Source: an uncultured delta proteobacterium
Lineage (GTDB): Bacteria; Desulfobacterota; Binatia; UBA9968
Assembly (NCBI GenBank): GCA_963737905.1
Contig: CAVTUQ010000002.1
Coordinates: 480,001-544,000 of the forward strand
Direction of reading: 5' to 3'
Length of the DNA stretch: 64,000 nucleotides
Of this stretch, positions 312 through 64,000 are shown piece by piece (the first letter of the stretch is position 1; each line of letters opens with the position of its first letter). A program made the translations under genes and the position numbers. The notes beneath the pieces are model-generated. The model was not told the DNA's origin. It ran no database searches and saw only the letters and a program-made list of their open reading frames with translations.

Positions 312-363
312 TCAACCTAACGATCCCTCAGTCGGTCCTGTTCCGGGCGGACAAGGTAATCAG

Positions 364-910: not shown

Positions 911-934
911 CCCTAATGTCAGGATAGATGTCGC

Positions 935-2757: not shown

Positions 2758-2797
2758 ACAATCAATGCGACATCTATCTTGAAATTTTTCGCCGGGC

Positions 2798-3366: not shown

Positions 3367-3369
3367 CCG

Positions 3370-3469
3370 CGAGGGGTGAAACGTCAGGAGTGAGGCGTAA
3401 GACGAAAACAATGAGAAAAAACATTTTTGGTGTAGCTCTTTACGTTCTACTCTTGCCGCTTTGCTTTTC
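3370..3469 (+). repeat. Heptamer-period imperfect inverted repeat (hairpin) enclosing the SBP start codon
   Basis: CGAGGGG TGAAACG TCAGGAG TGAGGCG TAAGACG pairs with CTTTACG TTCTACT CTTGCCG CTTTGCT TTTC; most non-Watson-Crick positions are G-U. Confidence 0.7.
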
Positions 3470-4400: not shown

Positions 4401-4401
4401 A

Positions 4402-4503
4402 AGAGCGCAAAGTGCTTGGAGCAAAGGGCAAAACGGGAGGGAACTCATGCGAAAGGGACTCTTTGGGTTTACGTTTAGCGCTATGCTCTTGGCGCTTTGC
4501 TCG
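4402..4503 (+). repeat. Heptamer-period inverted repeat enclosing the RBS and ATG of the third SBP gene
   Basis: GCAAAGTGCTTGGAGCAAAGGGCAAAACG pairs with CGTTTAGCGCTATGCTCTTGGCGCTTTGC; the loop holds GGAGG and ATG 4447. Confidence 0.75.
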
Positions 4504-5424: not shown

Positions 5425-5462
5425 GCGTGAGCCGTGAGGCGGCAGGAGCAGGAGTGAAATTC

Positions 5463-19387: not shown

Positions 19388-19864
19388 ATGCAAATTTCAC
19401 TTACAACTGAACGGCAACCGATGGAGGTCGAGTGCGAGCCGCAGGAAACTCTCGCTGAAGTTCTGCGCAACACGCTCAATCTAAACGGTACGAAGGTTTC
19501 CTGCGAAGTCCAGGTTTGCGGCGCCTGCACGGTATTGGTGGATGGTCTGCCCGTCAGCGCGTGCACCTATTTGGCCTACGAAGCGCGCGACAAAAGTGTT
19601 ACGACCATCGAAGGATTGGAAAAACCCGACGGCACGCTCCATCCACTGCAGCAAGCGTTCATCGATGAGTTTGCCTTTCAATGCGGCTATTGCACGCCCG
19701 GCATGATCATGTCGGCAAAGGCCTTATTGGATGAAAACCCCAAGCCCACGCGCGATGAGATCATCCATCACATGGACGGCAACATCTGCCGTTGCACCGG
19801 CTATGTGCCTATCGTCGCCGCGATTCAGCGCGCGGCCGAAGTGATGGCTAAGGAGAAACGATAG
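19388..19864 (+). CDS. (2Fe-2S)-binding small subunit, xanthine dehydrogenase/CoxS family
   Basis: CEVQVCGAC, QCGYCTPG, CRCTGY. Confidence 0.93.
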   Translation: MQISLTTERQPMEVECEPQETLAEVLRNTLNLNGTKVSCEVQVCGACTVLVDGLPVSACTYLAYEARDKSVTTIEGLEKPDGTLHPLQQAFIDEFAFQCGYCTPGMIMSAKALLDENPKPTRDEIIHHMDGNICRCTGYVPIVAAIQRAAEVMAKEKR

Positions 19865-22192: not shown

Positions 22193-22215
22193 ACCTTGAA
22201 CATTGAACCTGGAAC
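22141..22215. repeat. GTTCAA / TTGAAC repeat hairpin overlapping the large-subunit stop
   Basis: GTTCAAGTTCAAGGATTCAAAGTTCAAG ... TTGAACCTTGAACATTGAACCTGGAAC. Confidence 0.75.
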
Positions 22216-22226
22216 GAGCAATATTT

Positions 22227-23081
22227 ATGATGCCCTTAAGACGTTTCACGATTCATCAACCGAAGACCATCGCTGAGGCGTCCCAGATGCTCGGCGAGTT
22301 TGGCGAGAAGGGCCGGCTCTATGCCGGCGGTACCGAGCTCTTGCTCGCGATGAAGCATGACCTGCTGCGTTATGAGCATTTGGTCGACGTAAAGGCAATT
22401 CCCGATCTGAATAAAATCGAATTGAAAAATGGCGCGCTCACCATCGGCAGCACCGCAACTCACCGCTCCATCGAACGTTCGGCGGTTGTAAAGGAAACCT
22501 TGCCGGTGCTTGCTCAAACGGCAACCCAGGTCGCCAACGTGCGCGTGCGCGCAAGCGGGACTTTGGGCGGTAATCTGTGTTTTGCCGAACCGCACTCTGA
22601 TCCGGCGACCTTGTTATTGGCTCTGGGCGGCAGAGGGCGAGTGCAAGGAAAAGCTGGAACAAAGACCGTAGGGATCGACAAGCTCATTACAGGCGCCTAT
22701 GAAACTTCGCTAGCCACTGATGAACTCTTGACTGGAGTTGAGATTCCGATACCCGCAAAATCCCAACGAGCCGCCTATCTGAAATTTCAACTGCACGAAC
22801 GACCAACGTTGGGATTGGCCCTGGTGCTAGATCTTGATGGAGATAACATCAAGGCAGCTACCGCGGTCGTCGGAAGCGTCAGCGCGGTCCCAACCCAATC
22901 CGCCAAGGCCAATGCGCTCTTGATTGGTTCCAAAGCGCAAGTCGAAAAGCAACTACTGGACGCAGCAGAAGCTCTGGCCCAAGCTGCCGATCCGGTAGAT
23001 GATCTCGAAGGCAGCGCCGAATACAAACGCCATCTGATCGGGGTATTTTTGAGGCGAGCGTTTGCTCAGGCATTGTCCTAA
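22227..23081 (+). CDS. FAD-binding medium subunit, xanthine dehydrogenase/CoxM family
   Basis: AGGTELL, RASGTLGGNLC, GSAEYKRHL. Confidence 0.92.
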   Translation: MMPLRRFTIHQPKTIAEASQMLGEFGEKGRLYAGGTELLLAMKHDLLRYEHLVDVKAIPDLNKIELKNGALTIGSTATHRSIERSAVVKETLPVLAQTATQVANVRVRASGTLGGNLCFAEPHSDPATLLLALGGRGRVQGKAGTKTVGIDKLITGAYETSLATDELLTGVEIPIPAKSQRAAYLKFQLHERPTLGLALVLDLDGDNIKAATAVVGSVSAVPTQSAKANALLIGSKAQVEKQLLDAAEALAQAADPVDDLEGSAEYKRHLIGVFLRRAFAQALS

Positions 23082-32578: not shown

Positions 32579-35246
32579 TCAAGCGTGCGCTTCGGCCCAA
32601 TTCGTTCCCATATGCACCTCAATAGCTAGGCCGCACTGTAGTTCTACAGCTTGGGTCATCTTTTCTTCGATGAGCCCCCGAGCTTGATCGAGCTTGCCGG
32701 TCGGCACCTCGAACACGAGTTCGTCGTGCACGGTCAGGAGCATCTTGGCCACCGGCTCCGCCTGCAGGGCGGCATCGACACTGATCATCGCCTTCTTGAT
32801 GATGTCGGCGGCGCTTCCTTGAATCGGCGCATTGAGCGCCATGCGTTCGCCCAGCGCCCGCAACCGATAATTGGAGGAGTGGAGCTCCGGCAGGTAGCGG
32901 CGCCGACCGAACATCGTCGTTGTGAAACCGTCGATCTTCGCTTTTTCTACCTGAGAGGCGAGAAACGCTTTCACCTTCGGGAACTGAGCATAGTACGTTT
33001 CGATAAAATTCGCCGCCTCATCCATCTCGACGCCAAGCCGTTGCGAAACTCCAAAAGCAGACATGCCGTAAGCGATCCCGTAGGAGAACTGTTTGACATG
33101 GTTTCGCATCTCGGGTGTGACGTCGGCCAATCCAACGCCATAAACTCCGGCGGCGATGGTCGCATGGAAGTCGTGTCCCTCGGCGAAAGCCCGGAGAAAA
33201 GCCTCATCCTGGGAAAGATGCGCCAGCACTCGGAGTTCGATCTGCGAGTAGTCCGCCGAGAGCAGCACATGATCGGGGAGTGCGATAAACGCGCGCCGGA
33301 TCTGGCGGCCCATCTCACCGCGAATCGGGATGTTTTGCAGGTTAGGCGCCGTCGACGACAAGCGTCCGGTGACGGCGGTCGTCTGCTCATAAGTCGTGTG
33401 GATTCGATTCGTCTTGGGATCGATGAGCTCCAGCAGCATCTCGGTAAAGCCGGTCTTCAGCTTTGAAACCTCCCGATATTCGAGCAGTGATGCAATGATC
33501 GGATGGGCCCCGGTAATCTTCTCCAACTCCGCAGCGTCCGTGGAATAGCCGGTCTTGATTCTCCTGGTTTTTGGCAGGCCCAGTTTCTCAAAGAGAATAG
33601 TCTGGAGCTGGGGCTGGGATTTGACGTTGAAATTCTCGCCCGCAAGCTGCTGAATCGTGCCCTCGAGGGTTACCATCTTCTGCCCAAACTCGCTGTTCAA
33701 TTTATCAAGATAGCCGCGGTCGACGAGAATTCCGTTGTGCTCCATGCGCGCGAGCACCTTGACCAGGGGAAACTCCAAGGTGGTCGCCAACTCCCAAATA
33801 CCTTGGTTGCGGAGCTGTTCCTCGAGAGCGGGGGCGACGGCCCGGACCGCCACGGCTTCCCGGCAAACACGACGTTTGTCATCCGCACCTAAAGCGAGAC
33901 TGGCCTGTTCACCCGCTTCGAGCTCGGGCGGCTCCTCATCAATCGAGATCCTGAGATAACGGCTTACCGTATCTCTTAGCGCGTAGCCCGGTGCGGAGCC
34001 CGGTTCGAGCAAATAGGCAGCGATCTTTGTGTCACAATAAAGCCCCTGAATTTCCGTGACGGCCGCAAGGGCAGAGCGATAAAGCAGCTTGGCATCGTGG
34101 GCGATCTTTTCGTCTCTTGGCGTCCTTAAGAAAGCCATTGAGCCGCTGCATCCCGGAGAAGAACGGCAAAATGCGCGCTTCACCCGGTCCGTCACAAAGG
34201 GCAAGCCAATCCTCACTCCAAGCAAGCGCAACGGTCTCACCTTGATGAAGATCTTCCTCCGAGCGGAGCTCCGAGACCGTTTTGAGCTCGAGGGCGGGCG
34301 GCGCGGTGGCGGCGTGGAGCTTGAGCTCTTTCAACCGCTCGTGCAGAGTGCGGAACTCAAGAGAAGTGAAGAGCTTTCGTACTTCCTCATCATCCCAAGG
34401 CTCGAGGCGAATATCTCCGGGATTGATATCCAGCGGAACATCATCGAGCAAGCGCCCGAGCTCCTTATTGATGCGCACCTGGTTTGCACGCTCTTTGATG
34501 GCTTCGCGGAGTTTCGGGGTAAGCTCGTCGGCGTGGGCGATGACCTGATCGACGTCGCCGTATTTGTTCACCAGCTGAGCGGCGGTCTTGTCGCCGACAC
34601 CAGGGACACCGGGCAAATTATCCGAACTCTCGCCTTTGAGCGCCACGAAGTCCGTCCATTGCTTCGGCGTAACACCGTAGCGCTCCAGCACCGTCGCATT
34701 GTCGTAACGGATAACATCGGAGATGCCCCGGCGCGTCATGATCACAGAAACGCCGTCGCCGACGAGCTGGAGGATATCCCGGTCGCCGGTGACAATGACG
34801 ACCTCGTTCCCTTCTTGTCTGAAGCATTTCGTCAGAGTCGCCAGCAAGTCGTCGGCTTCGTAGCCCTCCAGCTCGGCCATGGGGATCCGTAAGCTCTTGA
34901 GCACCTCGCGGATCAATGGAAGTTGTTGCCTAAAAACGTCAGGTGTTTCAGCTCGGCCGGCCTTGTATTCTGCGTAGCGATCGAGCCGGAACTGCGGCGC
35001 TCCTTTGTCAAAGCAGACAACCACCTTATGCGGACGCTCGTCTGCCAGGAGTTTGATGAGCATAGCGGTAAAGCCATAGACGGCATTCGTGATCTGCCCC
35101 GATGAAGTGACAAGTGTATCGGGCAAGGCGAAAAAGGCACGAAACGCGAGCGAGTGGCCATCAAGCAATACCACTTTGCGTGCTTCGCTTTTGGCGGCTG
35201 CCGCTATGCTACGGCTGGGTTTAGTAACAGGTTTTTTCGTGCTCAC
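32579..35246 (-). CDS. polA: DNA polymerase I (actinobacterial type), 1-bp frameshift near 34108
   Basis: 5'-3' exonuclease LDGHSLAFRAFFALP, EADD, DNLPGVPGVG; polymerase TGRLSS, ADYSQIELR, VHDEL. Frames join at KRR/KIAHDAK in an A-run. Confidence 0.93.
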
Positions 35247-35365
35247 ATCTCTCAGTCTACCCGTTGGCCACGTCTGCGGCAACCCGCCGCGTGGTGACAT
35301 CGCGTTGAATTTCGTCTTCGAAATGAGAGAGCAGAAAAAAAGAGTGGCGTCAGTCGCGAGCGATT

Positions 35366-42249: not shown

Positions 42250-42979
42250 CTAGGGCTCCCATCGATACAGATGTACCGGGACCGGCTCACCTTCACTAAC
42301 GAGCGCAGCCTCGTAACCGTCGCATACATTCAGTTCGGCCAATGACCAGCCGGGCACGTTTGCGTTGATCCGCACGTGCTTCTCGCCAGCGAGGGTAATT
42401 TCCACTTCGTCCAATTGCCCCGAAAGACCCGTGCCTTTGGCTTTTAGGAAAGCTTCTTTGCTTGTCCAACACTTGTAGAACGCCTCCCTCTGGAGATGGA
42501 GGTGGAAGAGCATGAAGCGCTGCCACTTCTCTGGGTGTAAAGAATCGTTGGGCCACCTCGTCGAATGCGAAATCTTCTCTAACCCGCTCCACATCAACGC
42601 CGATTTCTCGGCCTCGGGTCACAGCGATAAGCACCCTCTCGTGGGAGTGGGATAGATTAAACTCAAACTTCTTCTTGGCATGAATGGGCGCCAGTTTCGG
42701 CTTGTTGTAGGGACCCGAGTCAAACTGCAACTCCCGAGCAGCGCTGTTTACATAATTGGACAAGATCGATCTCAGCGCAGCATGAGCGACAACGTACCGT
42801 CGTCGGTCTGTTTCAAATTTGAATCTCGAGGCTCGCTCTTGCTCTGCCGAAGATAAAAGCCCTTCGAAATCTAGCGAAATCTTTTCACCGTTGGCTTGGA
42901 CCAGCCAAATATGAACTTCATTTTCGCTTATAGCGAGACTTGAGGAGGAGCCCGGTCGAACCAAAAACGGATTGAGCAT
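42250..42979 (-). CDS. Sfp-type 4'-phosphopantetheinyl transferase, 1-bp frameshift near 42500
   Basis: FNLSHS, IGVDVE, then WTSKEAFLKAKGTG in the next frame. Confidence 0.88.
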
Positions 42980-43056
42980 GCTAAGGTGCTTTTACCTGAT
43001 TCGCCCGCCCTAATCCACGGTTAATCGTGCCCGAATTATGATGCGATTCTGGCCAC

Positions 43057-43257
43057 TCAGGTCGCTTTGTGGGGAATTTCTTCTACGTAGATATCGAAGA
43101 CGGAGCCGGTGGGAAGATCGACGGTCTTGGTGTGCATCAGGTCGCCTTCGAAGAAAAACTCGATCCAGCTGCGGTTTTCGGAGACTCCGAGTATGATGCC
43201 GGCGACGCTTTTGATCGAGTCAATGATCTCGTCTCCGTTGGGGAGAGCTTCACCCAT
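43057..43257 (-). CDS. Small hypothetical protein (possibly truncated)
   Basis: GAGG RBS, 11 bp after the ligase stop. Confidence 0.55.
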   Translation of the reverse strand: MGEALPNGDEIIDSIKSVAGIILGVSENRSWIEFFFEGDLMHTKTVDLPTGSVFDIYVEEIPHKAT

Positions 43258-43268
43258 GCAATCGACCT

Positions 43269-44798
43269 CTAGTTCGAGAGCAGCGTGTCGGCCTCTCGTA
43301 TTAGTTTTCCCGACGAAGTACGAGGCAGCGACTCACGGATAACGATCTTTTGCGGAACTTTGAAGTTTGCCAGATTACCACGCAGAAAGGTCAACAGCTC
43401 TTTCTCGACGATGTTATCTCCCGGCCGCGCCACTATGGCGGCGCCGATCACATGGCCACGCTTTGGATCCGGCATGGCGAAGACAACCGTCTCCTGTACA
43501 CCCGGATAGGTATAGATCAGATTTTCCACCTCGGCGGGATAAACGTTTAGTCCGCCGGTGATGATCATGTCGTCACGCCGCCCCAGATGATAGTAATAGC
43601 CGTCCGCTTCAACCTTGCCAACGTCGCCGGTGTAGAGCCAGCCATCGCGAACACGCGCTGCCGTTGCCTCCGGTTTTCGAAAATAGCCTTTCATCACATG
43701 CGGGCCGCGGGTGATAATTTCGCCCGGCTCGCCGATGGGCACTTCTTTGCCCGCCTCATCGACGATTTTGACCTCGACGCCGGGGACGGCCCGGCCAATG
43801 CTGCCCATCTTGGTTTCTGCCTTTTCCGGCTCGACCAATGTGATCATGGGCGACGTTTCGGTGAGTCCGTAGCCTTGGATGACTTTGATGTGGGGTTGAG
43901 CCGATTGGAACGCGCGTAGCAACGGCAACGGAATACTGGTCCCCATCATAGCGGCAATTTTAACGCTGCTAGTATCATAGCGGGCGAGGTCCCGCACTCC
44001 CAGGAGGAGCTGAAAGACAATGGGCACGCTTTCGAAGACCGTAACCCGATGTCTCTGAATGCCTTCTAAAAGCGTCACCGGATTGAGCTGGTCAAAAATC
44101 ACCAAAGTAAAACCTTTGTCCGCCACCTCATTGCAGACGATGGGTCCGACGATATGCGACATCGGCAGGACACAGCCCCTGATCGTAGAGCCATCAGTGA
44201 TGCCGATTTCACCCATCACACGGGGATACTGGGCAAGGTTTCGGTAGCTCAGCACTACGCCCTTGGGCTCCCCGGTGGTTCCGGAAGTGTAGAGAATCAA
44301 CGCGTCATCATCGGCGTGGAACTGGGGCGCACTGGCTGGCGCTGACGGCACGGAGAATCTCTTCTCGAAACTCTCATCGCCTTCCCCGTTGACCACCCAG
44401 AGGGGTATTCGCCCCAGCTCTTTGAAAGCTTCCTCCGCCTCGGCGCGCAGCTGCTGGTGCACGATGAGCAATTTGACAGCCGCATCCTTTAGAACACCTT
44501 GCAGCTCTTTTCCCTTTAGTCGTGCGTCGAGGATGACGGTCACCGCAGCGATCCTTTGGGTGGCGAAGTAGGTGAGAGGGATCGCAGCGCAATTCGGCAA
44601 CAGCACTCCGACGCGATCGCCTTGGCGAATGCCCGCCTGCTGCAGATGTGCCGCCAGTCCTTGCACCCGCTGGTTCAGATCCGCGAAAGTCAGTTTCTCA
44701 TCCTTGGTGATGATCGCGGTTTTGTGCGGCTGACGCTGTGCGGTCTTTTCCAGAACTTGCGCCGCGAAAAAGCCTACTGAGCCGGAATCGTTTGCCAT
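43269..44798 (-). CDS. Long-chain acyl-CoA ligase (class I adenylate-forming enzyme)
   Basis: YTSGTTGEPKG, GYGLTE, TGD, LPRTSSGK. Confidence 0.92.
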   Translation of the reverse strand: MANDSGSVGFFAAQVLEKTAQRQPHKTAIITKDEKLTFADLNQRVQGLAAHLQQAGIRQGDRVGVLLPNCAAIPLTYFATQRIAAVTVILDARLKGKELQGVLKDAAVKLLIVHQQLRAEAEEAFKELGRIPLWVVNGEGDESFEKRFSVPSAPASAPQFHADDDALILYTSGTTGEPKGVVLSYRNLAQYPRVMGEIGITDGSTIRGCVLPMSHIVGPIVCNEVADKGFTLVIFDQLNPVTLLEGIQRHRVTVFESVPIVFQLLLGVRDLARYDTSSVKIAAMMGTSIPLPLLRAFQSAQPHIKVIQGYGLTETSPMITLVEPEKAETKMGSIGRAVPGVEVKIVDEAGKEVPIGEPGEIITRGPHVMKGYFRKPEATAARVRDGWLYTGDVGKVEADGYYYHLGRRDDMIITGGLNVYPAEVENLIYTYPGVQETVVFAMPDPKRGHVIGAAIVARPGDNIVEKELLTFLRGNLANFKVPQKIVIRESLPRTSSGKLIREADTLLSN

Positions 44799-45778
44799 AT
44801 GGAAAACGCCCTTTGAAAAGGTTTATACCAGCGCGACAGTTGCGCCAGCTCGCCGCGTTTAAGCTTTAACTTTCCTTGCTGCGTGGCGAGAAAAGGATCG
44901 ATGCGGTTACTGAATACCGCTCTCCACCACTCCTCTTTGCCGCTGATCATGAACTCGCCATCTGTCCCCTGATTCAATTCAGTGATCTCACCGGCAACGA
45001 ATTTCACGGTCCAAGATATATCTGTTTCCTCCAGATGGAGCGTCAGGGACGTGGAAAGACTGGTCTCGCTGCCGTGATTGCGAAATGTCGGATCTTCATT
45101 GGCGTGTTCCACCAGCGCCGCCATGTGTTCCTGGGAAAACAAAACGTAGTTTTTGCCGTCAGCGAGCGATGCGGTTTTCCCGTTTTGCGCTTGACTCGGC
45201 TGCGAGCTTGCCCCGCGCGTCGCCGCGGCACCCTCCTTGAAAAACTGGCAGTGAACCGCCTCCTCAAGCAAATCTGTCAACAGAAAGGCTTCTTGAAGAT
45301 TCTTGCCGATCGCCACCGTGCCGTGACCCTTGATGATTACCACCGGATGATATTTAAGCCCTTCTACGACCGGCTCCGGTTTTGTCACCGTCGGCGTGTC
45401 CTGCGGGATGATGGCTACCTCGCCGATCGTGTATTTCTCTTCAAAACTGACCGGCACAAAACTCTCGTGGGTCAATGAAAAGGCCAGCACCATGGGCGGG
45501 TGGACATGGACGACGGCTTGGGCATCGGTGCCCTCATACACAGCTAGATGCAGCGGTGTTTCACTGGAGGGCCGCTGCTTTTCTCTCTGCGGCTTACCCT
45601 CCTGATTGATCCGTACGAGATCCTTCGGTGTCAAAAAGCCTAGGGCCGCCTGCCGTCCGGTGATAAGAAACTCTTTTTTGCCGACCCGGCAGCTCAGGTT
45701 ACCACCCCAGCCGCTGATGAGCCGCCGCTCGAAAAGCAGCTTGCCCCACCGAATCATTTCGCGTTCGGTCTTCGTCAT
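44774..45778 (-). CDS. Class II aldolase/adducin domain fused to a C-terminal SCP2 sterol/lipid-binding domain
   Basis: GGNLS, PSSETPLH, HVH, GHG zinc ligands; C-terminal W..VFSNRIDPFLATQQGKLKLKRG is SCP2-like; TGATG coupling to the MtnA-like gene. Confidence 0.82.
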   Translation of the reverse strand: MTKTEREMIRWGKLLFERRLISGWGGNLSCRVGKKEFLITGRQAALGFLTPKDLVRINQEGKPQREKQRPSSETPLHLAVYEGTDAQAVVHVHPPMVLAFSLTHESFVPVSFEEKYTIGEVAIIPQDTPTVTKPEPVVEGLKYHPVVIIKGHGTVAIGKNLQEAFLLTDLLEEAVHCQFFKEGAAATRGASSQPSQAQNGKTASLADGKNYVLFSQEHMAALVEHANEDPTFRNHGSETSLSTSLTLHLEETDISWTVKFVAGEITELNQGTDGEFMISGKEEWWRAVFSNRIDPFLATQQGKLKLKRGELAQLSRWYKPFQRAFSIWQTIPAQ

Positions 45779-47313
45779 CAGGCAGCTCCGCTGGCATCTT
45801 TGAATATCGTCCAAGGCAGAACTTCGCTCTCGAGGGGATACACGGAAACTCCTGCCGGGCAAATCTTCTGACCCAAGAAAGTCGACACATCAAGGTCCGC
45901 TCCGGAACCCTCTGGCATTTCCGACGCAAGCAACTCGATCGGTATCTTATGATGGCGTGCCAAGCGAACCGCCAGCAGCGAGCCACAAATCCCGCGTGGT
46001 CCTTGTTCGCTCAAGCCATCGTAAAATAAGCAGAGCTTGCGAATCTCGCCATGAGCAAACAGAAAACCCATCATGTTGTCGGAGATCAAAGTCGTCGGTG
46101 TATTGCGAGCAAGTAGTTCGCGAGCCACGACTCGAGGGCCCCATAGCTGGGGTCGCATTTCGGGAACTAAGACACTGTGCGCCTGCTCAGCCTTAAGCGC
46201 ATGGGCCAAGAATGGATAGTTCTGTTTATTCGGCACACCGTAAACTAATAGATACTGCGCCGGCGGCTGGCTGCCGTTTTGTGCGGCTGCCGATGGCATT
46301 TTCAGATATCTCTTCCGAAAGCTTTCCGGCGTGAAGAGGTCATCAAAACCCACTAAGGAACTTATCAAGAACGAAGGGGTTATGTCGAAGGCCGGATAAC
46401 GACAGGCGAGCTTTTCCGCGCCTTCCGCGACCAGCGGCCGTCCTTGAAATACGAGGATCTCAGCGGCTGGCCGCTCTTCAATCGTGACGTCATCGCCTTG
46501 GACCAAGCTACCGGGGTCCTGCACCAAGACGTGGAAAGGGATCCCGTACTCCTTCGCCATCAAGGCCAAAGGATACGTTCCGACCTTGTTGATCACGTCG
46601 CCATTCTGCGCGCAACGATCGGAACCCACGATAACTGCGTTGACTTCTCCCTTTTCCATAACCTGAGCAGCCGCGCAGTCCGGAATCAAGGATACCGAAA
46701 CGCCTGCCTGTGCCAGTTCCCACGCCGTGAGGCGTGATCCTTGTAGATAGGGTCGCGTTTCCGTGGCAATGACGGAGATCTCTTTGCCCGCCTCTCTACA
46801 CGACTGAGCCACCGCCACGAGCTCGCCACTGATGTTGCAGTGCGTCAGCACCCGTGCAGAAGCCGGTAGAATGGAGGCCGTGCGCTTGGCCCGGGAAAGC
46901 CGTGCTTGGACAATCTGTCCCACGAATCCATGCGCCTGTTCTACCACCCACTCGCCAACACTGCTGCCGGCCGGCAGTTCGGCGAGCCACCTGGAGAAAA
47001 AACCGAAGAGACCATTGAAATCGAAGGTCGGGCGCGCGGCGGAGAATTGCCGGGTCATTTGTACGAGCTGACTCTCTAGAGGGGCAGGGTCGTCACCTCG
47101 ATATTCCTGGGCTAGCAACGCACCACTGTAGAGAAAAGCGAGCACCTGTCCGAAAGCTCGGGTCTTCATCTCCCTAACGGCATCGACGGCGTGGGAAATT
47201 CCATCAATCCGAATGTATTCGATCCGCTCCGGGATCAAAGTTTCATCAAGGATTTTGAAGCCGCGCCCCTCCCACAAAACCGGTTCGAACAGCGGACTGT
47301 GCACGAGTTTCAT
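45778..47313 (-). CDS. MtnA-like (methylthioribose-1-phosphate) isomerase with a second degenerate eIF2B-like domain
   Basis: LTHCN, ETRPYLQGSRLTAWEL, GSDR...NKVGTY, PAFDITP; repeat unit EMRPQLWG...LISDNM. Confidence 0.85.
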   Translation of the reverse strand: MKLVHSPLFEPVLWEGRGFKILDETLIPERIEYIRIDGISHAVDAVREMKTRAFGQVLAFLYSGALLAQEYRGDDPAPLESQLVQMTRQFSAARPTFDFNGLFGFFSRWLAELPAGSSVGEWVVEQAHGFVGQIVQARLSRAKRTASILPASARVLTHCNISGELVAVAQSCREAGKEISVIATETRPYLQGSRLTAWELAQAGVSVSLIPDCAAAQVMEKGEVNAVIVGSDRCAQNGDVINKVGTYPLALMAKEYGIPFHVLVQDPGSLVQGDDVTIEERPAAEILVFQGRPLVAEGAEKLACRYPAFDITPSFLISSLVGFDDLFTPESFRKRYLKMPSAAAQNGSQPPAQYLLVYGVPNKQNYPFLAHALKAEQAHSVLVPEMRPQLWGPRVVARELLARNTPTTLISDNMMGFLFAHGEIRKLCLFYDGLSEQGPRGICGSLLAVRLARHHKIPIELLASEMPEGSGADLDVSTFLGQKICPAGVSVYPLESEVLPWTIFKDASGAA

Positions 47314-47340
47314 GTTTCTATCGCGACGCGAGCAACGGAT

Positions 47341-48075
47341 TCATAGAAAGCGTAGCGCTTGCTGCGCGACCTCAACCATCTTTTCTTCAGCGGCAAGAAA
47401 CAGCGGGTCGCGAAAACCAAACCTACCATAGAGACACTCGTCCGAAACCGCCAGAATGGCGCCGGCCTTCTTTTTTCTGAGTTGGGCAATCGTGAGGAAC
47501 GTGGACGTCACCATATCGATGCTCGTGACCCTCTGCTCGTTCAACTCCTGAATGAGCTCCGGCGTCTCCTGAAACAGAGCATCGGTGGTGAAAATCCAGC
47601 CCAGATGATGGCGAACGTTTAAGCTTTCGGCCGCCGCTTTCAGAGCCGCAACAATATCAGGGCTGGCAACCGTGGAAAAACTCTTGGGCACGTAGTAGCT
47701 CGTCGTTCCCTCGCCGCGGACCGCGCCGGTGACGATCACGAGATCACCGATCTTCACTTGATCCTGCAACGAACCGCAGCTGCCGATGCGAATCAACAAT
47801 TCCGCCCCTGCGGCGCAGAGGATTTCCGTAGTCATCGCCGTGTCCGGCGCAAAGCGCCCGCCGTTGCCGACGGTCACTCTTTTCCCCCCGAGGGTCCCCG
47901 TGTGCATCTCATAATCCAAAAACGTGAAATTCTTTGTCGGATGATCCAGCAGGCCGAGCACCATTTGACTCCGCTCTTTCGGTCCGGGGATCAGCGCATA
48001 GGGTCCGAGGGTATCGGATTTGAGACCCAACATCGCAAGCATTTTCTGCGGCGTGAAATGTGGCTCTTTGACCAT
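47341..48075 (-). CDS. Nucleoside phosphorylase (PNP_UDP_1, uridine phosphorylase-like)
   Basis: LIPGPKER, IRIGSCGSL, AVRGEGTT, TTDALF, DM, AVSD. Confidence 0.88.
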   Translation of the reverse strand: MVKEPHFTPQKMLAMLGLKSDTLGPYALIPGPKERSQMVLGLLDHPTKNFTFLDYEMHTGTLGGKRVTVGNGGRFAPDTAMTTEILCAAGAELLIRIGSCGSLQDQVKIGDLVIVTGAVRGEGTTSYYVPKSFSTVASPDIVAALKAAAESLNVRHHLGWIFTTDALFQETPELIQELNEQRVTSIDMVTSTFLTIAQLRKKKAGAILAVSDECLYGRFGFRDPLFLAAEEKMVEVAQQALRFL

Positions 48076-48079
48076 GGAT

Positions 48080-49318
48080 TCAGAGCGCCTGGGAAACAAA
48101 CTCCAGCAGATCCTGCGTTGGCAGAGCGTCATGGGAGCAGTTAGCGAAGCTCCGCTGGCATAAGGCGCTTGAGGTTAAAACTAGTTCCGCACCGGTGTCA
48201 TTGGCTTCGCGCATCCGGTCCTCGGCGTTCCACTGCGCCAGCTCCGGGTACGCCTCCGGCACACCACCACCACCGCCACAACACCAAGCCCAACGCTGAT
48301 TACGTTCCATCTCCACCAACTCAATTCCTGGAATGGAGCGCAAAATAGTCCTCGGCGCTTGGTAGACGCCACAGCCACGGCCAAGATGGCACGAGTCATG
48401 ATACGTGACTTTTTTCCGCATGGTCTTGCTGAATTGCAGCCGGTTAGTTTTCACCAGATCTTCGACGTATTCGACACCATGAAGAACCGAGATTTTGAAC
48501 TCCGCTTTCTTGGCATACTGCTGCCAAATGCGCCGGCAACTCCCGCAGGCAACCACAACTTTGCCGATCCCGGCTTCCTTGATCCTGCTCAGGTTCTCGT
48601 TCTCCAACCGGTCGTACTCCCGCCGGAACCCCAGATCAAAAGCGTAGAGGCCACAACATTTTTCCTCGTCGCCCAGAATAACAAAATCTTCATCGGCTTT
48701 TTTCATTAGCTTCGCGAGAGCGATGGCACCCGCTCTTCCACTGTTGCCATCCGCCGAACAGCCGGCGAAGAGCAGTGTGGTGGCACCGCCGCTGCCGAGC
48801 TTTTTCAATCCCAGTTCGTTTGCCCAAAGCCCCCGCTCGGCTTGGGGCCGCGACCATGGATGGTCATATTGTTGCAGACCCTCGAAGAGCGGGCGATGGG
48901 CTTCGATGGGTCCGTCCTTTTCGGTCATTTCCTCACGCATCGCGACCGTGATGTCCCAGGGCCCATATCCGTCGTCACGCACCCCACAGAGCTCCTGACA
49001 CATCAGACAGTTTGTGCATGTATACATGACTTCCTTGAGTTCGGGTGTGATGGTATCCAGCCCATGAAACACGCGCTGCGCCATGAGCCAGCGCGACTTC
49101 GGCGTAAATCTTTGAAAGCGATAGAACTCGTAGGGCGGACACTTGCTCTTCGGCCCCGGAACATCCTCCATCGGATTGGCAGGGCCATGACCGTAACAGG
49201 AGCCGCACAGGACACAGCCCGCGCTGCGCTCTTCGAGCCCCTTGGCATAGAGCCACTTTTTGACTCGTTCGAGGCCGTGCGGTTTGTTGGTGTCGCTTTT
49301 CACAGGAATTAGGTCCAC
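48080..49318 (-). CDS. Fe-S oxidoreductase (4Fe-4S + two CCG domains; GlcF/HdrD-like)
   Basis: CVLCGSC, CTNCLMCQELC, EKCCG, YHDSCHLGR, CCGGGGG. Confidence 0.88.
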   Translation of the reverse strand: MDLIPVKSDTNKPHGLERVKKWLYAKGLEERSAGCVLCGSCYGHGPANPMEDVPGPKSKCPPYEFYRFQRFTPKSRWLMAQRVFHGLDTITPELKEVMYTCTNCLMCQELCGVRDDGYGPWDITVAMREEMTEKDGPIEAHRPLFEGLQQYDHPWSRPQAERGLWANELGLKKLGSGGATTLLFAGCSADGNSGRAGAIALAKLMKKADEDFVILGDEEKCCGLYAFDLGFRREYDRLENENLSRIKEAGIGKVVVACGSCRRIWQQYAKKAEFKISVLHGVEYVEDLVKTNRLQFSKTMRKKVTYHDSCHLGRGCGVYQAPRTILRSIPGIELVEMERNQRWAWCCGGGGGVPEAYPELAQWNAEDRMREANDTGAELVLTSSALCQRSFANCSHDALPTQDLLEFVSQAL

Positions 49319-49379
49319 GTGAGAATACTTTAAGCGTTAACTTTATAACCTGTAAATAACTCCTGTCAACAAACCCGAG

Positions 49380-49838
49380 CTACTTTGCCAAGGCAACGCG
49401 ATTGAGTTTGCGCAGGAGAGCGGAAAGTTCCTTTTGTTGCGGCTTGTCGAGTGAAGAGAAAATTCGTGAGATACTTTTCTCATATAGCGGAATTGTAGTT
49501 TTATATAGCTTGGCGCCTTTTTCCGTCAGTACCACATGAACCACGCGACGATCATTCTCGTCTCGCTTACGAGAGACCAGTTTTTTCTCTTCCAAACGGT
49601 CAACGATGCCTGTGAGGTTGCTCACCGTCACCATCATCTTCGCCCCGATTTCCCCAAAGGGAAGCCCGCCAGCGTAGCCGATGGTCGCGAGCACGTAAAA
49701 CTGAGGCGGCGTGAGACCCAACTTCTCGAGATCCTCCTCGAGTTTCTTGTGCGAGAGGAGGCTAAAGCGGAGAAATCTGACCCATAAGCCCGTGGTATAG
49801 GATGAAAAAAAAGGACGTTTAAAAACGACCACGTGCAT
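49380..49838 (-). CDS. MarR family transcriptional regulator (start uncertain)
   Basis: GLTPPQFYVL, VDRLEEKKLV.R..D..DRR...V.LT. Confidence 0.9.
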   Translation of the reverse strand: MHVVVFKRPFFSSYTTGLWVRFLRFSLLSHKKLEEDLEKLGLTPPQFYVLATIGYAGGLPFGEIGAKMMVTVSNLTGIVDRLEEKKLVSRKRDENDRRVVHVVLTEKGAKLYKTTIPLYEKSISRIFSSLDKPQQKELSALLRKLNRVALAK

Positions 49839-49981
49839 CACTCTATTCGCAGAACCAGTAAAAAGCAATCGGGTTTTGTTGCTTCCACTTCCAAACAGCG
49901 GTGTCGATGCTGGAATATTAGAAAAGGGCGAAGTATAAGTTTCACGGACAAGCAAGGCTTAATCGAACGCTAGATCAAATC

Positions 49982-50701
49982 ATGAAAGTTCATATTCTCG
50001 GCTGTGGAGATGCTTTTGGCAACGGTGGGCGCAACCAGAGCGGCTACCTCATCGAAGCCGCCGACCGGCTCTTCCTCCTAGATTGCGGGCCGACAACTTT
50101 GCTGGCGATGAAAAAGGCAGGTTTTGATCCGCGACGCTTGGATGTCATTTTTCTGAGCCATCTCCACGGCGATCACTTTGGCGGTCTCCCGTTCTTCTTC
50201 ATCAGCTATCTATACGAGAATCCTCGGGACAAACCCTTGGACATCGCCGGACCACCCGGGTCCGAAGAGAGGGTTAGTGAGCTATTCCAGCTCATGTACG
50301 GCGGTGATCTGCCGACCACTCGCTTTCACATCCTCCAACCCGATAGAGCTGAATTCATCGCGGGAATCCATGTCCTCCCCTTTCGTGTTCCCCACCAGCT
50401 TCACGCGATTTCCCTCGGGCTAAAAGTCAGCTACGAGGGAAAACAGATTCTTTTCTCCGGCGACTCCGCTTGGACCGATCTTTTTCTATCCCATGCCACC
50501 GGCGTAGACCTGTTCCTCTGCGAGTGTTCGTTCTACGATCAGGACAGTTCCAATCACTTGAACTACAAGACACTGCGGGAAAATTTCACGCGGTTAAATT
50601 GTCGCAAGTTGATGCTCACTCATCTGGGTGAGGAAATGCTCAAGCGGCGAGACGAACTTGAAGTGACTTGCGTGGAAGACGGAATGGTGATCGAACTCTG
50701 A
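49982..50701 (+). CDS. MBL-fold metallo-hydrolase (RNase Z-like)
   Basis: SHLHGDHFGG, FSGD, THL. Confidence 0.9.
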   Translation: MKVHILGCGDAFGNGGRNQSGYLIEAADRLFLLDCGPTTLLAMKKAGFDPRRLDVIFLSHLHGDHFGGLPFFFISYLYENPRDKPLDIAGPPGSEERVSELFQLMYGGDLPTTRFHILQPDRAEFIAGIHVLPFRVPHQLHAISLGLKVSYEGKQILFSGDSAWTDLFLSHATGVDLFLCECSFYDQDSSNHLNYKTLRENFTRLNCRKLMLTHLGEEMLKRRDELEVTCVEDGMVIEL

Positions 50702-50726: not shown

Positions 50727-51923
50727 TCAACTCGGATCGTCCTGGGTTTCTTGCCGAGCGGGCGCCGGCACGATGAGAACGCGAAGACCACTTTTTTCCT
50801 GGATTTCCTTGGCTATTTCCTGCGCTTCCAGCAACTCCGCGTAGGGGCCAACCCGCACTCGATAAGCTGTTTGGCCTCCCGTCAATGAAGTTTGCTCGAC
50901 AAACGCCTCAAAGCCGTTGGCGGAAAATTGTTTGATCAGAGACTCGGCGCGGCCACGCTCGCGAAACGCCCCTACCTGAAGAAGATAGCCATCGGATGAT
51001 TCCGACTTGCTATCCTCTTGTGGCCCAACGAACGCCGACATGCGCTCCGGGCGAACGCTGACCTGCTCGCTCATTGAGGTCTTGCCCGCGTGCTGGGCCT
51101 CCAAGGTTTGAAAATTATCGAACCCATATTCCAACAGTTTTTTGGTATCTCCCCACTGATCGCGAGCGCCAAGGATCGACACGATCAACGTCACGCCGTT
51201 GCGCGCCACGGCTCCGACAAAACACTTTTGTGCAGCGTAAGTATAGCCGGTCTTGCCACCGATAGCGCCATCAAAGTTCCACAGCAGACGATTGTGATTT
51301 CTAACCGAGATGCGCCGGGCGACGGTTTTCTTCCTGACGACGGAGTTGGACTTCACCGAGCTCATCTTGGTCTGGACGATCTCGCGAAAGGTAGCATTCT
51401 TCATCGCATATCGAAAAAGAATCGCGAGATCTTGAGCAGTGGAATAATGATCCGGAGCCGTAAGTCCATGGGGATTGGTGAAATGACTGTTCAGAGCACC
51501 GATATCATGGGCTTTTTTGGTCATAAGCTCGGCATAACGTTCGACCGAACCTGCTAAGCCCTCGGCCAACACCATGCTCGCATCGTTGGCGGAGGATAGC
51601 AGGATACCGTAGAGCAAATCGTCGATGGTGAGGGTTTGACCGGGTCGAAGATAGAGCTTGGATGCCGGCACGCGAGTCGCCGCTTTGGACACGGTGATTG
51701 ATTCGGTAAGCTTCCGCCCGCTTTCCAAAGCCACAATCGCGGTAACGATTTTGGTCGTGCTCGCCGGCGGTAGACGAAGATCCGAATCCTTTTGATAGAG
51801 AATTTTCCCCGTAGCCGCATCCATAAGAACAGCCGCGCGCGCAGTTAAATCCGCGTCAGGAGAAAAGGACCAAACCGAATAAGCGGGTAAAACTATCAGT
51901 AAAAAGGTTAGAATTGGACCCAT
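50727..51923 (-). CDS. D-alanyl-D-alanine carboxypeptidase (peptidase S11) with C-terminal SPOR domain
   Basis: PASTTK (SxxK), SAN, KTG; LQVGAF...YRVRVGPY. Confidence 0.92.
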   Translation of the reverse strand: MGPILTFLLIVLPAYSVWSFSPDADLTARAAVLMDAATGKILYQKDSDLRLPPASTTKIVTAIVALESGRKLTESITVSKAATRVPASKLYLRPGQTLTIDDLLYGILLSSANDASMVLAEGLAGSVERYAELMTKKAHDIGALNSHFTNPHGLTAPDHYSTAQDLAILFRYAMKNATFREIVQTKMSSVKSNSVVRKKTVARRISVRNHNRLLWNFDGAIGGKTGYTYAAQKCFVGAVARNGVTLIVSILGARDQWGDTKKLLEYGFDNFQTLEAQHAGKTSMSEQVSVRPERMSAFVGPQEDSKSESSDGYLLQVGAFRERGRAESLIKQFSANGFEAFVEQTSLTGGQTAYRVRVGPYAELLEAQEIAKEIQEKSGLRVLIVPAPARQETQDDPS

Positions 51924-62071: not shown

Positions 62072-62563
62072 TTAGCGAGACACGACTTCCTGAATCGACG
62101 CGATAATTGCGGGATAGGCACCACAGCGGCAGATATTCCCGGAAAGCCATTCAGCGATTTCTTCTCTCGTCGGCGACGGATTCTGCAGCAGCAGGGCCTT
62201 GGCTGACATGATCTGCCCCGGCGTGCAAAAGCCGCACTGAGCGCCGACATTTCGCATAAACGCTTCTTGGAGAGGATCCAGTTGTCCTCCCTTGGCCAAT
62301 CCTTCAATGGTAAGCACGGATTTGTTGTGCGCCTCGAATGCCAGATAATTACAGGAACTGACGGGCTGGTCTTCAACCAAAACGGTACAGGCCCCGCACA
62401 CCTGCGACTCACAAGAACGTTTCGTTCCGGTAAGGCCCAACCGTATTCTGATAAACTCAAGCAAGGTTTCCTCGGCGGGCACAGACCCATCCCAACGGTT
62501 CCCATTTACGTGGACGTATAATTGAAGAGAATGGCTATCGGTTGGACTCTGGGGAGGTTCCAT
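62072..62563 (-). CDS. (2Fe-2S)-binding small subunit, xanthine dehydrogenase family
   Basis: CESQVCGAC, QCGFCTPG, CRCGAY. Confidence 0.92.
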   Translation of the reverse strand: MEPPQSPTDSHSLQLYVHVNGNRWDGSVPAEETLLEFIRIRLGLTGTKRSCESQVCGACTVLVEDQPVSSCNYLAFEAHNKSVLTIEGLAKGGQLDPLQEAFMRNVGAQCGFCTPGQIMSAKALLLQNPSPTREEIAEWLSGNICRCGAYPAIIASIQEVVSR

Positions 62564-63431
62564 TCGTATTCCTTTCAATGTCATTGACCGCGTCGTCCAA
62601 GGCGCGCTCCAATAGAATGACCGTGAGGTAAAGTTTATATTCCGCCGAACCCAACAGATCATCGATGGGTTCCAGCGTGCGGCGTAAATATGGCTTGGTC
62701 TCTTTGATGATCTTTTTGCTGTCGTTTAAAGTCGCGCCCCGGATTTTTGACTCAAGTTCGGCAAGCCGAACAGCCTTCGGCCCGATGCACCCTACGGCAA
62801 ACCGAACCTCTTCAATTTGCCCATTCTGACAACGTGCCGCGGCGGCCACTCCCAATGTGGGCCGCTGCAGTCGATGAATCCTCAAGTAAGAGCTACCAAA
62901 CCCCGCCGGTAATCGCGGGACATGGATCGCTACTAGCAGCTCGTCGGATTCTAGCGCGGTCGTGTACATACCGACGAGAAATTCCTGGAGTGGAATTTGT
63001 CTCTCCCCGCTCGGACCGTGAATCCTGACTTCTGCATCGTAAACCAACAGCGCCGTGGCGGGATCGGAATGCGGATCATTGAAACAAAGATTTCCCCCGA
63101 TTGTTCCCTGGCCTCGCACTCTTATGTTGGCGACTTGTGACTCGGCATGGGCAAGCATCGGCAACGCCTCACGAACGGTCGTATCCGTCTCCAACCGCCG
63201 GTGCGTCACAGCTGCTCCGATGACCACGCGATCGCTTTCCGATCCAATCCTGCTCAGTTCACCGATGGTTTTGATGTTGAGCAGATATTCGGTCCTGACC
63301 AAATTATGACGCAGGAGAATCAGTAACTCGGTTCCGCCGCCATACACCCTTACCTGGTCGCCTAAACGTGCTAGCTCATGCACGGCATCTGCGATTGAAT
63401 TCGTATTTAGGACTTTGAAGGCCGGAAGCAT
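62535..63431 (-). CDS. FAD-binding medium subunit, xanthine dehydrogenase family
   Basis: GGGTELL, GTIGGNLC, GSAEYK. Confidence 0.92.
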   Translation of the reverse strand: MLPAFKVLNTNSIADAVHELARLGDQVRVYGGGTELLILLRHNLVRTEYLLNIKTIGELSRIGSESDRVVIGAAVTHRRLETDTTVREALPMLAHAESQVANIRVRGQGTIGGNLCFNDPHSDPATALLVYDAEVRIHGPSGERQIPLQEFLVGMYTTALESDELLVAIHVPRLPAGFGSSYLRIHRLQRPTLGVAAAARCQNGQIEEVRFAVGCIGPKAVRLAELESKIRGATLNDSKKIIKETKPYLRRTLEPIDDLLGSAEYKLYLTVILLERALDDAVNDIERNTNGTSPESNR

Positions 63432-63444
63432 TGTCCACTCACAT

Positions 63445-64000
63445 TCACTGGAGTTTGCCCAAAGCAGCGAGAATCTTCTCAGGAGTGATGGGTAAAGATT
63501 TCACCCTGGCTCCGATGGCGTCGTAAATGGCGTTGCCGACAGCAGGGGCCACCGTGACGATAGATGTTTGGGACATGCCTTTGGAGCCAAAAGGACCGGG
63601 GCCGTCGCCGGCTTCTAAGATTGACGTGCTCATGGAGGCCGGTAAGTCCTTTAAAACCGGCAGACGGTATTGGAAAGGGTCCGCGTTCAAGATCTGGCCA
63701 TCAGAATAAACAACCTCCTCGAAGAGAGCATGTCCAAAACCCATGACAGCTCCACCAAGAAGCTGCGCAATTGCCGACCTATAATGCAGCACCTCGCCGG
63801 CATCCACCGCGACTGCATACTGAAGAACCCGAAATTCTCCGATGTCCGGATCGACTTCAACTTCGGCGATTGCTGCGCTGGGGGCCCAATGATCCATTCC
63901 TGCGAACGAAGACGAATCTTTTTGTACCGGCGGTGCTCGGTAAGCGCCTGCGCTTTGAATAGTCGCTTCCGGTCCAATCAGACTGACGATTTCCGCGAAT
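63445..64000 (-). CDS. Molybdopterin-binding large subunit, C-terminal part (runs off the window)
   Basis: AEVEVD, GPFGSKG, AVGNAIYDAIG, LPITPEK; frame open to the window edge. Confidence 0.9.
   Translation of the reverse strand, partial: FAEIVSLIGPEATIQSAGAYRAPPVQKDSSSFAGMDHWAPSAAIAEVEVDPDIGEFRVLQYAVAVDAGEVLHYRSAIAQLLGGAVMGFGHALFEEVVYSDGQILNADPFQYRLPVLKDLPASMSTSILEAGDGPGPFGSKGMSQTSIVTVAPAVGNAIYDAIGARVKSLPITPEKILAALGKLQ

Follow-up and report, generated by a model that had tools for sequence, protein, structure and literature searches.

The dihydroxyacetone phosphate (DHAP) shunt is a three-enzyme disposal route for methylthioadenosine (MTA) and 5'-deoxyadenosine that operates in Rhodospirillum rubrum and extraintestinal Escherichia coli. 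It uses MtnP, or MtnN together with MtnK, followed by MtnA and Ald2, and the aldehyde that is released is reduced and excreted. Bacillus thuringiensis reportedly disposes of 5-deoxyribose with DrdK, DrdI and DrdA (PDB 6btd and 6btg), starting from the free sugar with a kinase. In Streptomyces cattleya, fluoroacetate is made by a fluorinase, the phosphorylase FlB, an isomerase, an aldolase and a fluoroacetaldehyde dehydrogenase. HpnG, a member of the PNP_UDP_1 superfamily, acts on an adenosine that carries a lipid at its 5' position. Haloarchaea have a pathway through ribose-1,5-bisphosphate and ribulose-1,5-bisphosphate that relies on a kinase and on a phosphatase and in which glycolaldehyde is reduced to ethylene glycol (PMC9700705). 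Here we analyze a run of eight genes in a 64,000-nucleotide stretch of DNA, referred to as the window, from an uncultured delta proteobacterium of the lineage Desulfobacterota; Binatia (assembly GCA_963737905.1, contig CAVTUQ010000002.1, positions 480,001 to 544,000). Its core of phosphorylase, isomerase, aldolase-SCP2 and ligase genes, which we call the module, most likely encodes an undescribed variant of the DHAP shunt, and a literature search found no published description of it.

The run spans positions 42250-49955 of the window and consists of the following genes, given from the first to the last.

49380-49955, minus strand: MarR-family regulator, the first gene of the run (PF01047, E 2.9e-17)
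48080-49318, minus strand: Fe-S/CCG protein with two CCG stretches (PF02754, E 2e-27, and PF13183, Fer4_8)
47341-48075, minus strand: DeoD-type nucleoside phosphorylase (PF01048, PNP_UDP_1, E 2.7e-35)
45778-47313, minus strand: isomerase of 511 amino acids, a paralog of MtnA (PF01008, E 2.2e-55)
44774-45778, minus strand: Zn class II aldolase fused to an SCP2 domain (PF00596, E 8.7e-39)
43269-44798, minus strand: AMP-forming ligase (PF00501, E 2.8e-89, and PF13193, E 6.4e-17)
43057-43257, minus strand: conserved open reading frame (ORF) of 66 amino acids with tblastn matches in Binatia loci
42250-42979, minus strand: Sfp/HetI-type phosphopantetheinyl transferase (PPTase) in two frames (PF22624 and PF01648)

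A first-pass annotation of the window had placed these eight minus-strand genes at 42250..49838, and all of them were recovered by ORF listing and searches with Pfam and NCBIfam. It had also described the enzyme genes as overlapping or less than 30 bp apart, which we confirmed. The Fe-S/CCG stop codon is 4 nt from the phosphorylase start, the phosphorylase and isomerase genes are 27 nt apart, the isomerase stop and the aldolase start overlap by 1 nt, the aldolase and ligase genes overlap by 25 nt, and 11 nt separate the ligase gene from the 66-amino-acid ORF. On balance, we favor the view that these genes of a soil bacterium form a single operon under the control of MarR and encode a DHAP shunt that is extended and made up of paralogs.

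In the pathway that we propose, the DeoD-type phosphorylase would strip the purine base from a nucleoside to leave a ribose-1-phosphate derivative, the MtnA paralog would convert this to the ribulose-1-phosphate form, and the Zn aldolase would cleave the product to DHAP and a two-carbon aldehyde bearing the C5' substituent. The aldehyde would then be oxidized to the acid, a step for which a classic aldehyde dehydrogenase is encoded beside the aldolase in other phyla, and the AMP-forming ligase would turn the acid into a thioester. The gene content, the catalytic residues, the SCP2 fold, the linkage across phyla and the paralogy to canonical MtnA and MtnP are observed directly; we infer these reactions, the direction of flux, the substrate, and the roles of the SCP2 domain, the half IF-2B domain and the Fe-S/CCG protein. 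The same logic of phosphorolysis, isomerization, aldol cleavage, oxidation and coenzyme A (CoA) activation was put forward in the first-pass annotation, and it is supported by the conserved linkage of the genes, the dehydrogenase in 44 of 46 loci outside Binatia, and the SCP2 fold.

We looked for signs that the run is transcribed as a unit. Parts of the ligase, aldolase, isomerase, phosphorylase and Fe-S genes are covered by contigs from two soil RNA libraries, both belonging to a single study. The aldolase/ligase junction is bridged by contigs at 44538-44942 and 44689-44849, and the Fe-S/MarR junction by a contig at 49261-49441. In the two libraries (X19 and X20) the contigs cover 9/30 and 8/30 bins, the bins without contigs being uninformative, and DNA carry-over is possible. 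The RNA contigs are compatible with a single transcript, as weak evidence and not as proof. The concern that the ligase might be transcribed separately is countered by the overlap of its gene with that of the aldolase and by the contigs from both libraries across that junction. A promoter scan gave five sites, against 4.5 expected by chance, and one of these (TTGACA-18-TAAAGT) lies in the spacer between the MarR and Fe-S genes. Between the genes of the run no minus-strand terminator was found; the one site on that strand falls within the aldolase gene. No inverted repeat that might serve as a MarR operator was found in 49300-50000. The true start of MarR is probably downstream of the TTG codon, and its homologues align from about residue 20-40.

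The phosphorylase and the isomerase are related to MtnP and MtnA and are separate from them. The phosphorylase ORF covers 47341-48132, with a conserved start (MVKEPH) at 48075. Its best NCBIfam models are those of uridine phosphorylase and DeoD, all below cut-off, and the MtnP model TIGR01694 is not among its 14 NCBIfam matches. By NCBIfam it is of the DeoD/uridine-phosphorylase type (hexameric NP-I) and is not MtnP. Alignment of ten module phosphorylases with E. coli DeoD (11 sequences in total) showed that the columns of DeoD His4, Gly20, Arg24, Arg87, Met180 and Asp204 are invariant and that Glu181 is replaced by Val. We take Asp204 to be a mark of purine-specific hexameric phosphorylases and His4 to contact the 5'-OH. 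Judged by these residues, the module phosphorylase is probably purine-specific.

The isomerase owes its length of 511 amino acids to a fusion. Residues 1-330 form the MtnA-paralog part, and a second, partial IF-2B domain occupies about residues 355-505 (PF01008, E 5.5e-8). This half domain is a separate ORF of 150-160 amino acids in 19 of the 46 loci outside Binatia (e.g. L084:8508-8996) and is missing in others, such as L109. The window isomerase falls below the cut-offs of the MtnA models (TIGR00512, 227.8 bits versus 279; PRK05720, 256 versus 271) and well below that of the ribose-1,5-bisphosphate isomerase equivalog (TIGR00511, 127 bits versus 314). The THCN and GSDR motifs presumably hold the catalytic Cys and Asp of MtnA-type enzymes. 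THCN and G[AST]DR occur in all 44 Binatia isomerase matches (as GSDR in the window isomerase); among 38 isomerase ORFs outside Binatia, THCN is present in 30 and G[AST]DR in 23.

Canonical counterparts are encoded elsewhere. All five genomes tested contain both MtnP (310-329 bits; cut-off 275) and MtnA (408-464 bits; cut-off 279) away from the module, and the module isomerases score 202-217 bits. In the window's genome (G000) the canonical MtnA (C2:15840-16820, 449.8 bits) and the true MtnP (C14:90710-91426) sit among housekeeping genes. By these scores the module enzymes are a distinct set, paralogous to the canonical MtnA and MtnP.

The aldolase gene starts with ATG, and a longer ORF with a TTG start extends to 45862. 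The protein comprises a class II aldolase (residues 1-190), a disordered linker (193-204) and an SCP2 fold (about 210-334). Across 25 aligned full-length fusion proteins with 24-64% identity, E73, H91, H93 and H152 are invariant. From E. coli FucA, we take these to be the catalytic Glu and the three Zn ligands, and the fusion family thus has the three-His Zn site and catalytic Glu of class II aldolases. An AlphaFold2 model of the whole fusion had a pLDDT of 91.8 and a pTM of 0.86, and its aldolase domain matched FucA structures and DrdA (6btd) with a TM-score of about 0.8-0.86 relative to the target. The SCP2 tail of the window protein scores 19.3 bits, under the Pfam cut-off of 21.3. PF02036 is matched by 21 of the 25 family members and the alkylsulfatase SCP2-like domain by two. 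When modelled alone, the tail had a pLDDT of 93.3, and Foldseek aligned it with Thermus SCP2 (2cx7; E 2e-8, TM 0.83, rmsd 1.9 Å), followed by UbiJ-SCP2, alkylsulfatase C-terminal domains and human SCP2. Judged by the models, the SCP2 fold of the tail is real. The domain is unusually conserved, with a mean column identity of 58% over 24 sequences from two phyla.

The ligase has the AMP-binding core and C-terminal domain of ANL enzymes, with the core motif SGTTGEPKG. Its nearest solved relatives are feruloyl-, fatty-acyl-, oxalyl-, malonyl- and succinylbenzoyl-CoA ligases. It would join its acid to CoA or to an acyl carrier.

We next consider how widely the gene set is conserved. A pattern scan of one genome per species, seeded by a seven-sequence alignment, yielded 116 confirmed relatives of the fusion, placing the module in at least 116 species-level genomes of uncultured lineages. 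We kept 80 loci, 46 of them from outside Binatia; the counts for Binatia refer to 34 named Binatia-type loci. The closest proteins bear names of metagenome-assembled genomes (MAGs) such as Candidatus Binatia and Deltaproteobacteria, which points to a Binatia-type MAG as the source of the window. Of 41 related genomes, with the unpublished G006 and G012 counted in, 22 show a match extending into the SCP2 tail, and seven more have an orthologue-level match, at 58-67% identity, to the aldolase domain alone. The order MarR-(Fe-S)-phosphorylase-isomerase-aldolase-ligase, with MarR upstream of the module, recurs in Binatia loci, and the ligase gene is directly 3' of the aldolase gene in 33/34 of them; the remaining locus ends 83 nt past the aldolase. 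Two loci of a sister family (L023 and L024) have neither the Fe-S gene nor the SCP2 tail and keep MarR-phosphorylase-isomerase-aldolase-ligase. In a third family of the order (L025-L027 and L032, from G037, G039, G032 and G040), the phosphorylase gene adjoins that of a short aldolase without SCP2, and there is no module isomerase or ligase; this pair could be an ancestral core.

The 46 loci outside Binatia, with 34-43% identity, belong to Omnitrophota, the Desulfobacterota MAG ORM2a and a few others, and the Omnitrophota carriers include the complete genome of Ca. Velamenicoccus archaeovorus. Two gene orders occur: PadR-ligase-phosphorylase-isomerase-(half IF-2B ORF)-aldolase::SCP2, and phosphorylase-isomerase-aldolase::SCP2-...-ligase. 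Clustering of all ORFs of these loci gave the following counts.

Protein of about 497 amino acids, directly 3' of the aldolase: 44/46 loci
Aldolase-SCP2 fusion: 43/46 loci
Isomerase: 38/46 loci
Ligase: 30/46 loci
Phosphorylase: 30/46 loci
B12-binding radical SAM (S-adenosylmethionine) protein: 29/46 loci
FabF-like ketosynthases: 25/46 loci

The 497-amino-acid protein is a full-length, non-acylating aldehyde dehydrogenase whose best models are betaine-aldehyde and phenylacetaldehyde dehydrogenases. Its predicted activity supports the step from aldehyde to acid that the first-pass annotation had postulated. The dehydrogenase also bears on whether the pathway could run in the synthetic direction, from an acid through acyl-CoA to an aldehyde, which would be joined to DHAP, isomerized and attached to a base to give a 5'-extended nucleoside. 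The aldolase, isomerase and phosphorylase reactions are reversible, and the ligase gene comes first in one of the Omnitrophota arrangements. A classic hydrolytic aldehyde dehydrogenase of the kind linked to the module, however, runs essentially one way, from aldehyde to acid, and no acyl-CoA reductase is encoded in the Binatia operon. We therefore give very little credence to synthesis.

The window ligase has as its best match the module-linked ligase in four of four complete genomes (in one of these it lies about 10.5 kb from the module), and the reverse search gave the same pairing, making them reciprocal best matches. Linkage that is kept while the gene order changes from one phylum to another is strong evidence of shared function. 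The synteny check thus found the phosphorylase, MtnA-like isomerase, aldolase-SCP2 and ligase genes conserved together in Binatia and reordered in other phyla. These data also address the notion that the ligase, small ORF and PPTase are unrelated neighbors of an ordinary salvage trio. The PPTase gene is present in just 7/34 Binatia loci, and 16/46 loci outside Binatia have no ligase within the fetched DNA. Against this, the window's ligase and aldolase genes overlap, the two are neighbors in nearly all Binatia loci, and they stay linked after reordering between phyla, with ligases that are reciprocal best matches. Chance proximity is accordingly a highly improbable explanation.

To what substrate, then, might the pathway apply? 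In four of four complete genomes the fusion is the only gene with a PF00596 match, and these genomes have no MtnB and no other Ald2 candidate. No RuBisCO or RuBisCO-like protein was found in the five genomes tested. Because the four complete genomes lack both MtnB and a RuBisCO-like protein, the fusion is the only visible outlet for the MtnA product. This result, as read from gene content, favors substrates of the 5'-deoxyadenosine/MTA type, and it fits the frequent B12-radical-SAM neighbor. The close structural similarity of the aldolase domain to the solved 5-deoxyribose-pathway aldolase (6btd) speaks for the same substrates. We tentatively take 5'-deoxyadenosine, MTA or both, which are by-products of SAM, as the leading substrates. 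They would yield acetyl-CoA or (methylthio)acetyl-CoA and not an excreted aldehyde or alcohol. The SCP2 domain would then act as a hydrophobic hand-off for a volatile, reactive aldehyde and not as a lipid carrier. The aldolase-dehydrogenase DmpFG has an aldehyde channel, and we speculate that the hand-off tunnel may be analogous to it.

Several observations weigh against this reading. With MtnP and MtnA already present, such small molecules call for neither an SCP2 domain nor a second phosphorylase and isomerase, and the conservation of SCP2 suggests that it has a specific ligand or partner. Regulators of the MarR and PadR families usually respond to aromatic or hydrophobic compounds. The ligase does not belong to the acetyl-CoA synthetases, and the invariant His4 column of the phosphorylase, at the 5'-OH contact in E. 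coli DeoD, also suits plain nucleosides. No aldehyde dehydrogenase, ketosynthase or radical SAM gene was found beside the Binatia modules at E <= 1e-15 in loci L013-L066, where five loci gave weak matches to short-chain dehydrogenase/reductase (SDR) and amidohydrolase proteins only; the Binatia modules thus have no dehydrogenase nearby for the oxidation step. In Omnitrophota the module lies inside a cluster of FabF, acyl carrier protein (ACP) and B12-radical-SAM genes, for which acetyl-CoA would be a pointless primer. Lastly, the Fe-S/CCG protein is, by its distribution, a Binatia-specific accessory and has no place in the scheme.

The state of the phosphorylase raises the alternative that the substrates are ordinary purine nucleosides. 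[quoted passage not shown] The DeoD-like phosphorylase keeps the Asp204 and His4 columns, no DeoB-type phosphopentomutase was found in the five genomes tested, and three complete Omnitrophota genomes gave no NP-I-type phosphorylase other than MtnP and the module enzyme. The Fe-S/CCG protein of Binatia resembles GlcF-type subunits; no GlcD/E-type flavoprotein, however, is encoded in the operon. We know of no ribose-1-phosphate isomerase activity in the family of the MtnA-paralog isomerase. The haloarchaeal pathway ends with a FucA-type ribulose-1-phosphate aldolase that releases DHAP and glycolaldehyde (PMC9700705), but the match of the window aldolase to the haloarchaeal ribulose-1-phosphate aldolase model (NF053831) was 58.9 bits against a cut-off of 300. 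Plain nucleosides would also leave the SCP2 domain, the control by MarR or PadR and the lipid-cluster context unexplained. We consider both this substrate and the shortcut improbable.

The SCP2 domain and the Omnitrophota gene context raise a different alternative, in which the substrate is an adenosine with a large hydrophobic C5' group, formed when a radical SAM enzyme adds 5'-deoxyadenosyl to a lipid or olefin. The module would trim this to DHAP and a fatty aldehyde extended by two carbons, which would become an acyl thioester. The first-pass annotation had seen a hint of a hydrophobic substituent in the SCP2 domain, the long-chain ligase and the oxidoreductase. The SCP2 fold proved real; "long-chain" is a generic family label only, and we see nothing that links the Fe-S/CCG protein to lipids. 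The fusion of an SCP2 fold to the aldolase across phyla speaks for a hydrophobic substrate, as do the nearest SCP2 structures, among them lipid-binding SCP2, UbiJ and alkylsulfatase domains. The module of Omnitrophota and ORM2a lies among FabF-like ketosynthases, an ACP, START-like proteins and a B12-radical-SAM enzyme, an orthologue of which is present in the window's genome, and PPTase genes lie by the ligase in 7/34 Binatia and 5/46 other loci, the latter of AcpS type. On the other side, no adenosylating radical SAM enzyme was identified in this context; the neighbor is BchE/HpnJ-like, a class that to our knowledge does not carry out adenosylation. In addition, genomes of family f2 retain the ligase though their aldolase has no SCP2 tail. 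We regard a hydrophobic substrate as rather unlikely.

A bolder form, which we also hold to be unlikely, makes the module the back half of a new two-carbon homologation with SAM as the C2 donor for building blocks of lipids or polyketides. Here 5'-deoxyadenosyl would be joined to a hydrophobic acceptor by a radical SAM enzyme. The module would then remove the base and, as DHAP, three carbons of the ribose, leaving C4' and C5' on the acceptor as an aldehyde, then an acid and a thioester. The product would prime the FabF-like ketosynthases in Omnitrophota and enter acyl-CoA metabolism in Binatia.

The cluster around the module in Omnitrophota and ORM2a (L067-L112; e.g. L078:4617-18176 and L109:42-14245) encodes two FabF-like ketosynthases, an ACP and a BchE/HpnJ-like B12 radical SAM protein, together with a PF04199 cyclase, START-like proteins, a ketopantoate-reductase-like protein, a TIGR04076 protein, an SDR, an MFS transporter and an Amidohydro_2 protein. 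A published survey lists calls of "ladderane"-type biosynthetic gene clusters in Omnitrophota MAGs (PMC9902471). The B12-radical-SAM orthologue in the window's genome has 36-38% full-length identity to the Omnitrophota proteins and is encoded 128 kb from the module. At this site (G000:C2:391264-395889; L113 6264-10890) the B12 radical SAM gene is followed on the same strand by genes for an SDR, a FAD_binding_4 oxidoreductase and a TENA/PQQC/haem-oxygenase-like protein. Among the 41 relatives, the orthologue is present in 20 of 22 module carriers versus 6 of 19 non-carriers. We dropped this co-occurrence as evidence, as the split follows the family tree (0/11 in family f3) and two of the six carry a module without SCP2.

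Adenosylhopane, or ribosylhopane, is one special case of a hydrophobic 5'-adenosine and was the concrete substrate suggested in the first-pass annotation, which called for a check of co-occurrence with shc and hpnH. Both genes were above cut-off in one of the five genomes, that of the window. Neither squalene-hopene cyclase nor HpnH above cut-off was found in the four complete module genomes from outside Binatia. Of the 41 relatives, eight have the cyclase above cut-off and 22 the fusion, with an overlap of seven; the other 15 fusion carriers have no cyclase in genomes that are 83-100% complete. In the window's genome the cyclase (C25:220666-222540) and HpnH (C25:225711-226667) are encoded on a contig other than that of the module, and we found no positive link there between the module and hopanoid genes. 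A weak MTAN/HpnG-like match (222900-223061) lies beside the cyclase in this neighborhood (G000:C25, 220666-226667), so that the hopanoid case would already have an HpnG-like gene of its own. Because most carriers lack the cyclase or HpnH, the module is independent of hopanoid synthesis. A hopanoid is very unlikely as the substrate, and we rejected adenosylhopane as the substrate of the family. This result removes the attractive but unsupported idea of enzymatic hopanoid side-chain trimming.

The other genes of the run are less evenly distributed. The Fe-S/CCG protein has a 2x[4Fe-4S] ferredoxin domain and two CCG domains, as in HdrD, TfrB, GlpC and GlcF. Its best NCBIfam match is TfrB (147 bits, far under the cut-off), its only PDB relative is the distant 9ojn, and no partner flavoprotein is encoded in the operon. 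It is present in 24 of the 27 informative Binatia loci, meaning those that reach far enough upstream. We rejected it as a universal member of the module, since none of the 46 loci outside Binatia has a match. The 66-amino-acid ORF is 3' of the ligase in 22/34 Binatia loci by tblastn. It has no Pfam or NCBIfam match and is not ACP-like, and its best Atlas score of 0.80 is at chance level.

The PPTase gene is read in two frames, 42296-42979 (PF22624 and PF01648) and 42250-42597 (PF01648, E 3.8e-10). DNA contigs of two other studies (runs X1 and X6) are one base shorter at 42501, and the orthologue in L013 reads in a single frame. As several other genes of the window are also split, the break in the PPTase gene, from one extra base near 42501, is likely an assembly error. 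The other split genes, each seen as two adjacent or overlapping ORFs (166-6445, 19864-22192 and 32579-35300), encode ABC substrate-binding proteins, a molybdopterin dehydrogenase large subunit and DNA polymerase I. In one of the ABC substrate-binding genes (166-927 and 2779-3366) an rve-integrase ORF (1270-2757) separates the two parts. Frameshift errors in the assembly, together with a single insertion element, would account for this pattern.

Upstream of the run, a gene for an MBL-fold hydrolase (49982-50701, plus strand) is divergent from MarR, and a gene for a D-Ala-D-Ala carboxypeptidase with a SPOR domain follows (50727-51923, minus strand). Both are beside the module in most Binatia loci. 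The window also contains two gene sets of the xanthine-dehydrogenase/CO-dehydrogenase type, with 2Fe-2S, molybdopterin and FAD subunits (19388-23081 and 62072-63999), that are unrelated to the operon.

If SAM by-products are the substrates, the module would be a new ending to SAM by-product metabolism in which carbon, and perhaps sulfur, is recovered as CoA thioesters, and it would name the only aldolase available for radical-SAM waste in Omnitrophota. If the module instead completes a homologation, it would be a new way to make acyl primers.

Compared with the fluoroacetate route of S. cattleya, the module shares a phosphorylase, an isomerase and a class II aldolase followed, as in the Omnitrophota version, by an NAD-dependent aldehyde dehydrogenase. 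The fluoroacetate route differs in having no ligase or SCP2 domain, and the module has no linked SAM halogenase/hydroxide-transferase. We rejected an enzyme of this kind as the source of the nucleoside; PF01887 is found in three of five carrier genomes and is never adjacent to the module. Like the module, the Drd enzymes are a dedicated paralogous set present in addition to the methionine-salvage genes, and the aldolase domain has DrdA among its closest matches in both sequence and structure. The Drd pathway differs in its kinase start and has no SCP2 domain, ligase or dehydrogenase. HpnG shares its PNP_UDP_1 superfamily with the module phosphorylase, but the window enzyme reaches 21.7 bits where the HpnG model requires 187, and most module genomes have no shc or hpnH. 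The haloarchaeal pathway likewise combines a nucleoside phosphorylase with an isomerase of the IF-2B family and an aldolase of FucA type, giving DHAP and a C2 aldehyde (PMC9700705), but neither its kinase nor its phosphatase is encoded in the module operon. The DHAP shunt itself has the same three steps, catalyzed by a nucleoside phosphorylase, an isomerase of the IF-2B/MtnA kind and a class II aldolase with Zn, all from the same superfamilies as in the module, and the same products, DHAP and an aldehyde. Unlike the shunt, the module has a phosphorylase that is DeoD-type and not MtnP, an isomerase that is a paralog below the MtnA cut-offs, and an aldolase that carries an SCP2 domain, and its ligase, joined in other phyla by the aldehyde dehydrogenase, would carry the aldehyde on to a thioester. 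Thus, the module differs from the known shunt in four ways: its own paralogs, a lipid-carrier fold on the aldolase, a fixed ligase and, in another phylum, a fixed aldehyde dehydrogenase.

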